27,700 nucleotides of DNA from Nanobdellota archaeon (GCA_041305305.1 JBFYLR010000019.1:1-27700); one strand, 5' to 3'. Counted from the first letter of the stretch, positions 12,886 to 21,350 are shown. Translations and numbers: made by a program. The notes: generated from the letters alone by a model not told the origin.

Positions 12886-12963
12886 ATGAAATCAATTATT
12901 ATGAACAAAATAGGGAAGGTTGAACTTCAAGGAAACCGAGAGGTTGCCTTAAGGAAGAAATAA
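12886..12963 (+). CDS. 25-aa mini-ORF MKSIIMNKIGKVELQGNREVALRKK
   Basis: Open frame from ATG 12886 to TAA 12963 with 1-nt spacers on both sides. Translation is not demonstrated. Confidence 0.4.
   Translation: MKSIIMNKIGKVELQGNREVALRKK
12914..12933 (+). repeat. Dispersed repeat copy GGAAGGTTGAACTTCAAGGA
   Basis: Exact 20-nt match to 21304-21323; contains the inverted repeat TTGAA-C-TTCAA. Confidence 0.9.
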
Positions 12964-12964
12964 G

Positions 12965-13591
12965 ATGACAGAAAAAGAAATAAAATCAAATACTGAAACA
13001 AAAATGGAAGATAAACCAGCAGATCTGCAAACTCCGGAGGGAGGAGCTTCGCAGCAGAAGCGAGAAAGCCCGCAGCATCCGAAGGTTGCTAAAACCGAGG
13101 ATTTGAGAGAGCACTCTCAACAAGAGAGTATGCAGAAGACAGAAGTTAAGAAAGAAGTTCCAAAAGTTGTAAAGAAGGACGAAGCTGTTGCACTCGGGAA
13201 CAATCTTCATGTTTCCATGAAGCAATGCATGTATATCTGTAAATTCATAAAAGGCGATTCAGTTGATGACGCGATTGCAAAGCTTGAAGATGTAATAAAG
13301 ATGAAGCGCGCTGTCCCATTCAAAGGAGAGATTCCTCACCGCTCGGAGAAAGGCATAATGTCTGGAAGATACCCTATAGTCGCCTCAAAGATAATGATAT
13401 CAGTATTAAAGGGTTTGAAAGGAAATATACTTGCTAACCAGATGGATTTGGACAAGTCAAGAATATACTTTGCGTCATCAAGCTGGGCTTCGCGCCCCTC
13501 AAAGAGAGGCGGAGCAAGATTCAAGAGAACCAATGTTATTTTAAAGGCAAAAGAGATGGATACAAAGGAGGTGCCAAAAAAGGTTGCTTAA
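12965..13591 (+). CDS. rpl22: 50S ribosomal protein uL22 with long N-terminal extension
   Basis: EAVA.G..LHVS.KQ, RAVPF, GRYP, RP.KRGG.RFKRTN; about 70 aa precede the conserved core. Confidence 0.95.
   Translation: MTEKEIKSNTETKMEDKPADLQTPEGGASQQKRESPQHPKVAKTEDLREHSQQESMQKTEVKKEVPKVVKKDEAVALGNNLHVSMKQCMYICKFIKGDSVDDAIAKLEDVIKMKRAVPFKGEIPHRSEKGIMSGRYPIVASKIMISVLKGLKGNILANQMDLDKSRIYFASSSWASRPSKRGGARFKRTNVILKAKEMDTKEVPKKVA
13066..13099 (+). repeat. Degenerate copy of the dispersed repeat inside rpl22
   Basis: AAGCCCGCAGCA (identical to 21286-21297), GAAGGTTG, and AAACCGAG (identical to 12933-12940). Confidence 0.6.
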
Positions 13592-13643
13592 GGGTCATCT
13601 TAAGGAAAGGTGACTTGTCAGGAAAACCTTGGTTGTCATACAA

Positions 13644-14363
13644 ATGGAAGAGAAAAAATTTGTAAATTTCAAGAAAGAAGAGCTTGGCGTAAAAGAATAT
13701 ATAAAAGAATCCCTTGGAAAAGGCAGAATCAGCAATGTCTCAATTGAGTACACTCCAGTCGGAGAAAAAATAATCATTGCAACCAGCAAGCCAGGATTGG
13801 TAATTGGAAGAAGAGGCGAGAAAATTGAAGAGCTTACGAGAGTTTTGAAAAGAAGATTCCATCTTGACAATCCCCACATTGAAATAAAGGAGATAATGGA
13901 CCCTAATCTTGATGCTCAGCTTGTAGCAGATGAAATTGCCATCTTGCTTGAGCGCCAGGGCGCCCTAAAATTCAAGATAATTGCGTACAAGATGCTTACA
14001 CAGATAATAAATGCCGGCGCACTTGGAGTAGAAATAGTTCTCTCCGGAAAACTTCCTGCAGAAAGGGCAAAGGCATGGAGATTCTCTCAGGGATATCTTA
14101 AGAAAACAGGCGACCCTGCGAAAGTTGTACAGCGAGCGCAGTCACAGGCGATAACAATGTCAGGTGTTGTTGGAATAAAGGTAAGCATTCTTCCTCCTGA
14201 AGCGCACATTCATGATAAGATTACTATCGATGAAGCTCTAAGAGCAAAACTAAGGGCTCCTCTCGAGGTAGTCGAAGATAAGAAGGAGAATGAAGATAAG
14301 AAATCTAAGAAACCAAGAAAGACTTCAAAGAAAACAAAGAAATCGGAGGGAAGTAAAGAATAA
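13644..14363 (+). CDS. rps3: 30S ribosomal protein uS3
   Basis: KPGLVIGRRG..IEEL, LDAQLVADEIA, GALGVEIVLSGKL..ERA. ATG 13644 preferred; TTG 13629 is possible. Confidence 0.96.
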   Translation: MEEKKFVNFKKEELGVKEYIKESLGKGRISNVSIEYTPVGEKIIIATSKPGLVIGRRGEKIEELTRVLKRRFHLDNPHIEIKEIMDPNLDAQLVADEIAILLERQGALKFKIIAYKMLTQIINAGALGVEIVLSGKLPAERAKAWRFSQGYLKKTGDPAKVVQRAQSQAITMSGVVGIKVSILPPEAHIHDKITIDEALRAKLRAPLEVVEDKKENEDKKSKKPRKTSKKTKKSEGSKE

Positions 14364-14563
14364 TGGCGCTTCTAAGAGTAAAAGATATAGCAAAGATGAA
14401 TGAAAAGGACAGAGAATCAAAGTTGAGAGATTTGAGATTTGAGCTTATCAAATCGGGCGTTACTGCAAACAAAGCCAACGCAAAAACCAAAGAGATTAAA
14501 AGGGCTATTTCCCGGCTAATTACGTTCAGCAAATCCGGCAAGGAGGCGCTGAATAAGAAATAA
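14363..14563 (+). CDS. rpl29: 50S ribosomal protein uL29
   Basis: MALLRVKDI..M...DR..KL..L..EL, KEIKRAISRLIT. Confidence 0.95.
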   Translation: MALLRVKDIAKMNEKDRESKLRDLRFELIKSGVTANKANAKTKEIKRAISRLITFSKSGKEALNKK

Positions 14564-14565
14564 AT

Positions 14566-19517: not shown

Positions 19518-20320
19518 TGGCTGAAAAAGACATAAAAGGAAAACAGAAAGGGCTCGTTGAAGCAACCCCTGAAGAATTGGAGAAGGTTGCGGAGAAAATT
19601 TCAAAAGTAGAAGAACTTCCTATTGAAATAAAGAGAGAGAGGCTAAGCAGAGCAGAGATTGAAGCAGAAAGACAGAAACAAGCGCTTGCTTCATGGGTGC
19701 CAAAAACTGCTCTTGGAAAGCTTGTAAGGACCGGAAAGGAGAAGGACATAGACAAAATTCTTCACGAGCACAAGAAAATTCTTGAACCAGAAATAGTTGA
19801 TTTGTCTCTTAAGCTTGATGTAGACCTTCTTTCAATCGGGCAGGCAAAAGGAAAGTTCGGCGGAGGAAAGAGGCGAGCCTGGAGGCAGACTCAGAAGAAG
19901 ACTATGGAAAGCAACGTCACTTCATTCTCATGCATGGCTGTTGTAGGAGACAGAAATGGGCACGTAGGAATAGGAATGGGCAAAGCAAAAGAAACGCTTC
20001 CTTCCAGGGCAAAAGCAATCAGGGATGCAAAGCTTAATTTAATAAGAGTCACAAGAGGATTTGAAACCAAAGAAGCTCCCGGCTCAAAACCTCACACAGT
20101 TCCATTTGTTGTTGAAGGCAAATGCGGTTCAGTGAGAGTTAAATTGATACCTGCTCCTCGAGGCTCAGGCCTGGTTATAGGGGATGAATGCAAGAAGATA
20201 TTAAAACTTGCAGGAATAGAAGATGTTTACAGCATGACAAAAGGGCAGACGAGAACTGTCTTTAACTTTGCCAATGCATGCATTGATGCGCTTAAAAAAA
20301 CAAGCAGGATGAAACTCTAA
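19517..20320 (+). CDS. rps5: 30S ribosomal protein uS5
   Basis: W.PKT.LGKLV, VVGDRNGHVG.G.GKA.E, PHTVPF.V.GKCGSVRV.L.PAPRG.GLV.G. Confidence 0.97.
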   Translation: MAEKDIKGKQKGLVEATPEELEKVAEKISKVEELPIEIKRERLSRAEIEAERQKQALASWVPKTALGKLVRTGKEKDIDKILHEHKKILEPEIVDLSLKLDVDLLSIGQAKGKFGGGKRRAWRQTQKKTMESNVTSFSCMAVVGDRNGHVGIGMGKAKETLPSRAKAIRDAKLNLIRVTRGFETKEAPGSKPHTVPFVVEGKCGSVRVKLIPAPRGSGLVIGDECKKILKLAGIEDVYSMTKGQTRTVFNFANACIDALKKTSRMKL

Positions 20321-20321
20321 A

Positions 20322-20732
20322 ATGTTATTGCTAATAAGAATATCCGGATTGGTTGAAATGCCCTCAGATGCGCAGGAAACGCTTTTCAGAATGAGGTTAA
20401 GAAAGAAGTACTCTGCAATTCTCCTGAAAGAAACAGAGGGAAACATGAAACTCCTTCAGCACATAAGAAATTTCGTAGCCTATGGCCCGATAGACGCTTC
20501 AACTCTTGAACTCTTAATCTCAAAGAGAGGAAAATCTCCTGACAATAAGAAGGTGGACAGCAAAAAGGCTGCAGAACTAATTGCAAAAGAAGGAATTGAA
20601 AAGTCAGGAATAAAGCCTTTCTTCAGATTGCATCCTCCAAGAGGCGGGATTAAATCAAAGCTTCATTTTCCAAAAGGCGTTTTAGGAGATAACGGAGAAG
20701 ATATTAACAAATTGGTAAGGAGGATGTTATGA
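20322..20732 (+). CDS. rpl30: 50S ribosomal protein uL30
   Basis: IRI.G, TL..MRL, FRLHPPRGG, G..GE.IN.LV.RM. Confidence 0.96.
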   Translation: MLLLIRISGLVEMPSDAQETLFRMRLRKKYSAILLKETEGNMKLLQHIRNFVAYGPIDASTLELLISKRGKSPDNKKVDSKKAAELIAKEGIEKSGIKPFFRLHPPRGGIKSKLHFPKGVLGDNGEDINKLVRRML

Positions 20733-21265
20733 AAGTCAAAAGGCGAAGGAAGAATACAAGATACCGCGGCTCCCAAACTCACTTCAGAGGGCATAGAAAG
20801 AGAACGAAAGGACTGGGCAATCAGGGAGGAAAAGGAATGTCTGGCTCAGAAAATCAGAAGAAATCTCTCATTATACAAAAATATGGGATTGAATATTTCG
20901 GCTCGCATTCAGCGTTAAGAAGAGGAAGAACTTCTCCAAAATTGAAAGTAATAAATCTCTCTGATTTGATTAAGAGATTTGACCTGCTTGTAAAACAGGG
21001 GCTGGCAAAACAGACTCAAAAAGGATTTGAATTTAATCTTGAAGGATATAAAGTTCTTGGAAACGGCCCTCTTGGAGCAAAGATATCTGTAAAAGCGAAC
21101 GCAGCCTCAAAGTCGGCAATAGAAGAAATAAAAGCAGGCGGCGGGACAATAGAACTCAAATCCGACAAACAGGAAGATACACAAACTCCTAAGGAAGAAA
21201 AGACTGCTGAAAAAACAGATGTTAAGAAAGCAAAACCTGCAGTCAAAAAAGAAGCAAAGAAATAA
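20729..21265 (+). CDS. rpl15: 50S ribosomal protein uL15 with Lys/Glu-rich C-terminal tail
   Basis: RYRGS.TH, G.GN.GGKG.SG, GYKVLG.G, S.SA.E.I.A.GG. Confidence 0.95.
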   Translation: MKVKRRRKNTRYRGSQTHFRGHRKRTKGLGNQGGKGMSGSENQKKSLIIQKYGIEYFGSHSALRRGRTSPKLKVINLSDLIKRFDLLVKQGLAKQTQKGFEFNLEGYKVLGNGPLGAKISVKANAASKSAIEEIKAGGGTIELKSDKQEDTQTPKEEKTAEKTDVKKAKPAVKKEAKK

Positions 21266-21285
21266 TTTCGTTCTCCGCTGGATTG

Positions 21286-21350
21286 AAGCCCGCAGCAAAT
21301 AAAGGAAGGTTGAACTTCAAGGACCTCAAGAATCGAAATGAATTGCCTTG
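21286..21350 (+). repeat. Dispersed repeat copy in the convergent rpl15/adhesin spacer
   Basis: Contains AAGCCCGCAGCA (21286-21297), GGAAGGTTGAACTTCAAGGA (21304-21323) and TTGCCTT (21343-21349); CAAGG/CCTTG can close a stem. Confidence 0.8.

Follow-up and report, generated by a model that had tools for sequence, protein, structure and literature searches.

The question raised by the 27,700-nt stretch of JBFYLR010000019.1 analysed here (GCA_041305305.1, Nanobdellota archaeon; "the window" hereafter means this whole stretch) is what a short sequence repeated in and beside a ribosomal-protein operon represents, and why it lies where it does. The longest exact direct repeat of the window, the 20-mer GGAAGGTTGAACTTCAAGGA, is present in exactly two places, 12914 and 21304, and TTGCCTT comes next in both. 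The repeats are copies of a previously undescribed family of small structured hairpin elements, known so far only from Woesearchaeota/Pacearchaeota-type DPANN archaea. The best reading, to which about an even chance of being correct is given, is that of a copied and co-transcribed RNA hairpin module at which a host factor would define or protect the adjacent RNA end.

The initial annotation had described the repeat as four modules occurring in the same order at three places. These modules are present where they had been placed: module A (AAGCCCGCAGCA) at 13066 and 21286, module B (GAAGGTTG) at 12915, 13081 and 21305, module C (AACTTCAAGGA) at 12923 and 21313, and module D (AAACCGAG) at 12933 and 13092, together with the exact 20-mer and the TTGCCTT that follows it. 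Their statistical weight differs. A direct repeat of 20 nt was reached in 0/200 Markov-1 simulations, 0.01 matches to the 20-mer are expected by chance at ≤3 mismatches, and the repeat around it reaches 28 nt at 89% identity. Exact 12-mer pairs are common in the window (130 observed vs about 67 expected), and the shorter modules by themselves do not exceed chance; among the modules, the 20-mer alone does.

Distribution and architecture of the family

A scan of 185,579 species genomes with the 20-mer returned three loci, all in Woesearchaeota-type metagenome-assembled genomes (MAGs), and a metagenome scan with an 18-mer returned 57 contigs, about 30 of which bear the full element. In the latter the consensus is 37-40 nt long and reads aAG-GAAGGTTGAACTTCAAGG-AAAC-(loop)-GTTKCCTTAAG, with a nearly invariant family core, aAGGAAGGTTGAACTTCAAGG. 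As a control for search bias, genomes were also scanned with the 3' hairpin alone (CAAGGAAAC N3-6 GTTKCCTTAAG); the true members obtained in this way (L001, L063, L067, L073 and L074) differ in the 5' core by two changes at most, so that the conservation of the core is not an artefact of the search. The further copies thus sought amount to about 35 other loci in Woesearchaeota/Nanoarchaeota MAGs and metagenomes. No Rfam 15 family overlaps the elements (E < 1 or gathering score), tRNA and rRNA alone being matched in the loci, and a literature search by sequence string and by topic gave no description of the core sequence or of the family, in agreement with the initial annotation, which had called it undescribed.

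Contigs that have the 18-mer alone in common with the family were treated as chance matches. They comprise the L009/L020/L046 group, about 15 singletons and a group of 11 contigs with a different conserved context (L005, L008, L012, L015, L016, L019, L025, L035, L039, L047 and L055). In this last group, several members of which come from peat-type samples, the 18-mer is embedded in other sequence that is itself well conserved among the 11 contigs and is probably a gene of an abundant unrelated organism. A viral origin was rejected, the IMG/VR scan having given just three copies of one unrelated contig.

The copies detected are few: four in the 27.7-kb window, three or four in the MAG Prado150 (L003a, L003b, L063) and, by exact-pattern scans, one each in other MAGs. 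In Prado150 a degenerate module-A-like unit (CCGAAAGATTCAAGCCCGTCAG, L003 2937-2960) follows the long form L003b, which brings this MAG to at least four related units near three tRNA genes.

Two architectures were distinguished. The short form (37-40 nt) consists of the core and a hairpin of 8-9 bp, AAGGAAAC/GTTKCCTT, and terminates in CCTTAAG. Three pairs of this hairpin (AAGGAAAC/GTTTCCTT) are changed on both sides, with the compensatory variants AAGGGAAC/GTTCCCTT in L006 and L031 and AAGAAAAC/GTTGTCTT in L041, and its loop varies freely. Long-loop variants (L014, L017, L003a and L023) carry two extra hairpins at one point of the stem and retain the AAGG/CCTT closure. The compensatory changes, and the extra hairpins with the closure kept, fit a single-stranded fold, and not a duplex protein site or a promoter of fixed spacing. 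A further hairpin proposed within the core (hairpin 1, GAAG/CTTC) has no covariation support, and of its two candidate pairings each is contradicted by one natural variant (L074 vs L067/L073). The short form begins with GGAAGG, is flanked on the left by AAG or AG, and has AAG at its right end; the complementary part of its ends is limited to AAGG/CCTT (4 nt), terminal inverted repeats are not present and no parent element was found.

The long form (66-153 nt; L108, L003a, L003b, L031 and L063) has the layout [5 nt][5 nt]-CGAAGGA ... GGCGAGA-[5 nt]-T-[5 nt], in which a closing helix of 5+5 bp with one bulged U is formed with all 10 pairs in 5/5 sequences. Six of the 10 pairs are changed on both sides, and the observed covariation score was reached in 0/500 shuffles. 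Covarying helices are present in both forms. The initial view of a dispersed, hairpin-forming repeat conserved at the nucleic-acid level is borne out by a real family. The two forms appear related: a comparison of GAAGGA-TTGAAGC...GCTTCAA-GG in L108 with GAAGG-TTGAA-C-TTCAA-GG in the short form makes the short-form core look like a collapsed version of the inner helix of the long form, and in L031 and L003a a short form is nested within a long form. The GA-rich internal loop CGAAGGA/GGCGAGA bears a loose likeness to a kink-turn. GA dinucleotides occur in this loop; the C box (RUGAUGA) and D box (CUGA) consensus was not found in the long form, where CGAAGGA and GGCGAGA stand at those places.

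The positions of the copies follow a pattern. Short forms terminate 0-10 nt upstream of the ATG of unrelated genes (aRF1, L37Ae, S4, S3, L22, proteasome alpha, a topoisomerase, MsrB and others) or 2-3 nt upstream of tRNA 5' ends (tRNA-His in three genomes, tRNA-Val and one more), and in 14/14 independent leader loci the element precedes the ATG or the tRNA in the sense orientation. Long forms begin at the base after a tRNA 3' end in L108, L003b and L063, and the long form of L031 stands alone behind a TATA-like box. Within tRNA introns the element is an internal part, not the whole intron, and adjoins the splice site; it is in sense in one tRNA lineage (four contigs) and in antisense in four independent tRNAs. 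An rRNA spacer likewise harbours a full short form (L011, minus strand, about 383-436); it is oriented like the rRNAs, with tRNA-Ala on one side and the 5' end of 23S on the other. Two tRNA-His loci (L032, L074) share a conserved TATA box, CTTTTATACC, about 20 nt upstream of the element, which makes a transcription start at the element's 5' end likely. An RNA processing signal, which the initial annotation had offered as an alternative to a mobile repeat, fits these positions well, since the copies abut mature RNA ends and start codons.

Copies within the ribosomal-protein operon

The window carries the archaeal ribosomal-protein cluster L3-L4-L23-L2-S19-L22-S3-L29-SUI1-S17-L14 ... L15. Its S19 protein is 53-82% identical to those of 28 MAGs, nearly all of which are labelled Woesearchaeota, Pacearchaeota or Nanoarchaeota, and the source was therefore considered to be a DPANN archaeon of that group. 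The three places noticed at first do hold copies (W1, W2 and W3 in Table 1); a fourth, decayed copy, W4, had been overlooked. At least two of the copies lie where the window departs from related genomes, which supports the sites of rearrangement first proposed: the insertion that carries W1 is absent from 28 S19|L22 junctions, and at the position of W3 a related MAG has an extra gene of 590 aa and no element.

Table 1. Coordinates of the elements and associated features in the window
Feature	Position	Strand	Remarks
Left 14-nt direct repeat, AAGAAATAAGATGA	12876..12889	+	exact 14-mer at 12876 and 12955
Mini-ORF (open reading frame), 25 aa, MKSIIMNKIGKVELQGNREVALRKK then stop	12886..12963	+	runs through W1
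W1, inserted element proper (65 nt)	12890..12954	+	AT-rich 5' extension, then short form
W1 short form	12914..12953	+	core GGAAGGTTGAACTTCAAGG and hairpin AAGGAAACC-gaga-GGTTGCCTT, end TTAAG
Right 14-nt direct repeat	12955..12968	+	second TAA and L22 ATG (12965)
W2, GC-rich patch in coding region of L22 N-terminal extension	13041..13100 (about)	+	scrambled long-form words
W4, decayed short form	13604..13642	+	between L22 stop (13589-13591) and S3 ATG (13644)
SUI1/aIF1 gene	14566-14868		
W3, long form, 73 nt	21266..21338	+	starts at first base after L15 stop
Family core 20-mer in W3	21304..21323	+	31.3 bits, E 5e-8; CTTCAA = 3' arm of inner helix
Trailing TGAATTGCCTT	21339..21349	+	compared with GGTGAAACTTGGTTGCCTT of L003a

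W1 contains a full short form (nhmmer E 5e-13; covariance model 59.1 bits, E 2e-16). It sits in a 79-bp insertion between S19 and L22 that is missing in 28/28 relatives, where 0-10 nt separate the S19 stop from the L22 ATG, and when the insert is deleted with one copy of the 14-nt direct repeat, exactly the ancestral S19|L22 junction remains. W1 is a recent insertion. At least 10 nt of the direct repeat are clearly target; within the left copy lie the TAA of S19 (12882-12884) and the start ATG of the mini-ORF (12886). A flanking repeat of 5-13 nt was found at L027, and none beyond the ATG at L037 and L028.

A gap of 1 nt separates the mini-ORF of W1 from the S19 stop, and another of 1 nt separates it from the L22 ATG. 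All five copies of this subfamily (W1, L037, the two copies of L027, which flank S4, and L028) have an in-frame ORF of 21-25 codons, with the consensus M..K(L/I)GKVEL(Q/K)GNRR(L/S)P followed by a stop. W1, L037 and both L027 copies occupy operon-internal junctions, and L028 lies 35 nt after the preceding gene. The start is an ATGA that overlaps the upstream stop, except in L028, where there is no overlap, and in W1, where it lies 1 nt past the stop; the end falls 1-6 nt upstream of the next ATG. The loop of W1 has a 1-nt change by which the frame is shifted, and the ORF ends at the TAA provided by the duplicated target. Leader copies behind promoters have no mini-ORF. The mini-ORF may be translated, as a mini-cistron that would preserve translational coupling across the insertion. 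In this frame the core reads GKVELQGN, close to the motif DGVIELQGNH of SUI1 (14758-14800), 1.8 kb downstream in the same operon; the likeness is probably a coincidence, because the DNA of SUI1 varies at synonymous sites and the core does not.

W3, which had been noticed as the third copy of the repeat, is properly a closed unit of 73 nt. Its closing helix, TTTCG.TTCT(C) / (A)AGAA-T-CGAAA, and its inner helix, TTGAAG/CTTCAA, are both present in the minimum free energy (MFE) fold. The pattern search recovered 9/10 pairs of the closing helix, its bulged T standing where the family has it, at a setting (9/10 pairs) that also gave about nine chance-looking matches elsewhere. The 5' half of W3, GGATTGAAGCCCGCAGCAAA, is 20/20 identical to that of L108, whose MAG has an S19 protein 81% identical to that of the window. 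The sequence that trails W3, TGAATTGCCTT, may be what is left of a short-form hairpin's 3' arm.

W4 is a full-length covariance-model match (13.2 bits, E 0.015), the third best in the window. At the same L22|S3 junction an intact copy is present in L037, and L079 has an apparent remnant seen by eye and undetected by the model. This junction is tight in most relatives; several instead have an inserted small ORF.

W2 was missed by both the nhmmer profile and the covariance model. It contains words that are also found in long forms of other genomes (GAGGAGCTTC, AAGCGAGAA, AAGCCCGCAGCA, CCGAAGGTTG and AACCGAGG) and shares with them 23 7-mers, vs 5.9 +/- 3.1 in dinucleotide shuffles (23 reached in 0/3000); the shared words are not collinear with the long forms. 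The peptide encoded by W2, PEGGASQQKRESPQHPKVAKTEDL, is unlike the K/E-rich L22 extensions of relatives. W2 is probably, with moderate confidence, a copy that has degenerated and been rearranged and that L22 now includes in its translated sequence. A start of L22 at ATG 13130, which would make W2 intergenic, was rejected, because 28/28 relatives start L22 right after S19 with a variable N-terminal extension.

Several other candidates were considered for the window. A reading of the two 20-mers as att sites or as the borders of an integrated element was rejected, the intervening DNA being the conserved ribosomal-protein operon, and so was an extra copy flagged by word sharing at 18930-19080, whose matching words are solely A-rich and of low complexity. 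The presence of tRNA or split-tRNA fragments was likewise discarded, as ARAGORN and Rfam detect no tRNA in the window. An exact 14-mer, AATCAATTATTATG, is common to the start of W1 (12890-12903) and an unrelated minus-strand coding region (381-394); it is A/T-rich and its sharing is most likely due to chance.

Copying, constraint and competing explanations

Copies at different junctions can be very similar. The L037 copy, at the L22|S3 junction, is 87% identical to W1, at S19|L22, over 71 nt and 97.5% identical over the 40-nt short form, vs about 72% (DNA) for the surrounding genes; tandem and nested copies occur in L041, L014 and L031. Copies at the same position are also unequally conserved with respect to their surroundings: those in the aRF1 leaders of L022 and L030 are 94.6% identical, vs 70% for the aRF1 gene, 58% for third codon positions at conserved residues and 60% for the upstream 60 nt, and the two tRNA-His copies are likewise better conserved than what surrounds them. 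Since the element is far more identical than its neighbours, its sequence is maintained, by selection or by renewal.

In the mechanism that these observations suggest, copies would be duplicated over evolutionary time into transcribed non-coding slots, that is, before start codons and tRNA 5' ends, after tRNA 3' ends and stop codons, and in tRNA introns and the rRNA spacer, some being kept under strong sequence constraint and others being left to decay. The element would be co-transcribed with its host gene, stable hairpins would form right at the border of the mature RNA or of the cistron, and a conserved host factor would recognise the element and define or protect that RNA end. New copies would arise by a duplicative process able to duplicate target sequence, and at tight operon junctions the mini-cistron brought by the element would let translational coupling survive its insertion.

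A number of points weigh against this mechanism. Action at the RNA level, a factor acting in trans and a site of processing are things that we infer, and the position of copies against gene ends could simply reflect the very short spacers of compact genomes. The identity of same-position copies could come from repeated re-insertion or gene conversion and not from selection. Four or five independent tRNA-intron copies are antisense, which a strictly strand-specific RNA signal does not predict. The A/T-rich sequence upstream of most copies gives inconsistent best matches to a TATA box. Hairpin 1 lacks covariation, and two variants disagree about it. W3 has a divergent internal loop (CGCTGGA/GGACCTC, not CGAAGGA/GGCGAGA) and may be inactive, and W4, apparently with the L079 copy, has decayed without obvious harm, from which the element is dispensable at some sites.

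A purely selfish, non-autonomous DNA transposon (a MITE, short for miniature inverted-repeat transposable element, or a palindrome-associated element of the repetitive extragenic palindromic, REP, type) is possible, though doubtful. It would be mobilised by a transposase encoded elsewhere, for example an HUH enzyme of the IS200/IS605 type acting on single-stranded hairpins, and would survive only where it is harmless. The insertion polymorphism of W1 with its flanking duplication, the different junctions occupied in related genomes, the decayed copies, the tandem and nested copies and the presence of both orientations in tRNA introns all speak for such an element, as do the two adjacent imperfect hairpins with AAG at the left flank and at the right end, a layout that recalls the recognition of IS200/IS605 ends. 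The membership of a REP/MITE family and the RAYT/IS200-type mobilisation that the initial annotation had suggested were nevertheless not upheld. Among the ORFs of 33 element-bearing loci (5-13 kb around about 30 copies) there is no recurrent non-housekeeping gene, and neither a recurrent transposase nor an HUH, RAYT or TnpA gene; a Pfam search of the window proteins gave no transposase, as had been noted at the outset. Just 1-4 copies were found per MAG, and the family lacks real terminal inverted repeats and a GTAG-type head. A flanking duplication is seen at W1 (10-14 nt) and at L027 (5-13 nt) and is lacking at other copies, a pattern that matches neither a fixed stagger nor the IS200/IS605 rule of no duplication. 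The sense orientation of all 14 independent leader copies (binomial about 6e-5) and the conservation of same-position copies, far better than that of synonymous sites, also stand against selfish transposition.

Known dispersed elements help to place the family. The Correia elements of Neisseria and the RUP, BOX and ERIC MITEs are likewise small, non-coding, dispersed, hairpin-forming, located beside genes and co-transcribed; Correia-type elements can alter mRNA processing and stability, and their presence varies between related strains. In Correia elements the terminal inverted repeats are clear, the target duplication is TA and copies number in the hundreds; none of this applies to the present family, which is archaeal and also occupies tRNA introns, tRNA leaders and trailers and the rRNA spacer. 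REP sequences, bacterial interspersed mosaic elements (BIMEs) and IS200/IS605-derived palindromes are likewise imperfect palindromes outside genes, and REP/BIME elements are often located at gene 3' ends, where they are able to stabilise transcripts. The recognition of single-stranded hairpins known from REP and IS200/IS605 systems would fit the two-hairpin layout and the AAG at both junctions; unlike REP/RAYT systems, the family combines a low copy number with the lack of a GTAG-type head and of RAYT/TnpA genes near any copy examined. HUH transposition makes no flanking duplication, and W1 has one of 10-14 nt. Archaeal C/D box small RNAs (sRNAs), which are found in tRNA introns, in untranslated regions (UTRs) or fused to tRNAs, use other transcripts for their expression. 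Like them, the members of the family are small conserved units without a promoter of their own, intronic, tRNA-adjacent or in UTRs, whose location shifts between genomes; unlike them, they have neither C or D boxes nor a guide region. By analogy, the family would function most like co-transcribed bacterial MITEs (Correia) or REP elements.

A more specific version of RNA-level action, considered unlikely, is a clade-specific RNA punctuation signal, in which a dedicated endonuclease or RNA-binding protein would recognise the core and the hairpin and cut or cap at the border. From compact polycistronic transcripts such a signal would yield leaderless mRNAs and tRNAs with mature 5' ends, as well as defined 3' ends, and it would spread by self-copying, with a mini-cistron where coupling must be kept. 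The gene of the RNase P protein Rpp29 usually lies between SUI1 and S17 in archaeal clusters. It is absent there in the window, S17 beginning 21 nt after SUI1 (14868-14890). With Rpp29 missing from its normal position in the operon, the element might join an alternative pathway of tRNA 5' maturation, and the absence bears on how element-carrying tRNA leaders would be removed.

Action as double-stranded DNA, as a mobile promoter or operator, is quite improbable. The purine-rich AAGGAAGG would serve as a transcription factor B recognition element (BRE) and TTGAACTT, which lies about 24-31 nt upstream of the ATG or of tRNA +1, as a TATA-like box, giving leaderless transcripts, or else the palindromes would bind a regulator. 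CCTTAAG placed directly before an ATG puts TTGAACTT at -31 to -24, which is the usual TATA position of archaeal promoters, the spacing to gene starts is tight and fixed, and Rpp29 is missing between SUI1 and S17; if RNase P were absent, tRNAs might need leaderless transcription. Against this, TTGAACTT makes a weak TATA box, the element loci use canonical ones elsewhere, and a conserved canonical one lies upstream of the element at tRNA-His. The long-loop variants L014 and L023 place the core 80-90 nt from the tRNA 5' end, the operon, intron and rRNA-spacer copies need no promoter, and the compensatory changes, like the variable insertions that separate half-sites, agree with a fold and not with a duplex site.

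Mobility at the RNA level, through the tRNA splicing endonuclease and ligase, with W1 spliced from the operon transcript as an intron would be, was rated as highly improbable. At least eight copies lie in tRNA introns beside the splice site, all other contexts are spacers of processed RNAs, and removal of W1 with one repeat leaves the exact ancestral junction. In Thermoproteales, introns that resemble one another have been described at different positions of tRNAs (PMC4090602); near-identical sequences in introns of unrelated archaeal tRNA genes (intron transposition, Fujishima et al. 2010, as summarised there) imply copying between tRNA genes. In Thermoproteales the unit is a whole bulge-helix-bulge intron confined to tRNAs; the unit described here is a 37-nt module that in no case makes up a whole tRNA intron, occurs in either orientation and is found equally often outside tRNAs. 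Moreover, no bulge-helix-bulge was predicted around W1 or W3 in MFE folds with flanks, the flanks are direct repeats, not complementary sequences, and the mini-ORF suggests that the insert stays in the mRNA.

Chance, or an origin of the repeats as coding fragments without a role of their own, the core encoding (K)VELQGN as in the SUI1/aIF1 motif, is scarcely tenable and as an origin of the family already largely refuted: the resemblance of the mini-ORF peptide KIGKVELQGN to the SUI1 of the window and weak profile matches to the SUI1 ELQGN codons in five relatives are outweighed by the variable synonymous sites of SUI1 beside an invariant core, by more than 3 of 18 nt at which the SUI1 of the window differs from the core and by the lack of an open frame in most copies, while chance is excluded by the covarying helices and about 35 homologous non-coding copies. 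An ancient origin of the core from SUI1 is possible.

Implications and neighbouring genes

DPANN genomes are tiny and tightly packed, and the ways in which their transcripts are started, cut and stabilised are almost uncharted. A 37-nt sequence that is near letter-perfect in genomes whose adjacent genes are about 70% identical, and that always lies at the edges of mature RNAs or cistrons, would offer a handle on an RNA-handling factor. The family also ties tRNA introns to elements located outside tRNAs, a connection that bears on the gain of archaeal tRNA introns, and W1 would illustrate how an insertion into a tightly coupled ribosomal-protein operon is tolerated by bringing a bridging mini-cistron. 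Covariance models of both forms would improve the annotation of Woesearchaeota MAGs with respect to intron-containing tRNAs, spurious small ORFs and N-terminal extensions.

Downstream of L15, a minus-strand gene of 687 aa (21371-23434) precedes SecY, a YidC-like protein and proteasome alpha. The 687-aa protein has stretches that resemble thrombospondin type-1 repeat proteins, no Pfam match, and one full-length homologue (49% identity) in a related MAG (L110), where the 590-aa gene lies as a second gene between this homologue and L15. Elsewhere in the window, a 542-aa protein encoded on the minus strand at 6151-7779 has Pfam matches to the small and large subunits of DNA primase, the large-subunit match being weak (E 0.005, below the Pfam cut-off); it may be a fused PriS-PriL primase.

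The N-terminal extension of L22 is highly variable in the clade (L079-L106), K/E-rich and about 40-85 aa long, with histidine-rich runs such as HDHSHEHAHDHSHDHNHEH in L083, L085 and L104. The L22|S3 junction is an insertion hot spot in the clade, an extra ORF of roughly 90-130 aa being present there in six relatives (L079, L081, L084, L085, L088 and L093), the last of which also has a 640-nt insert at the S19|L22 junction.

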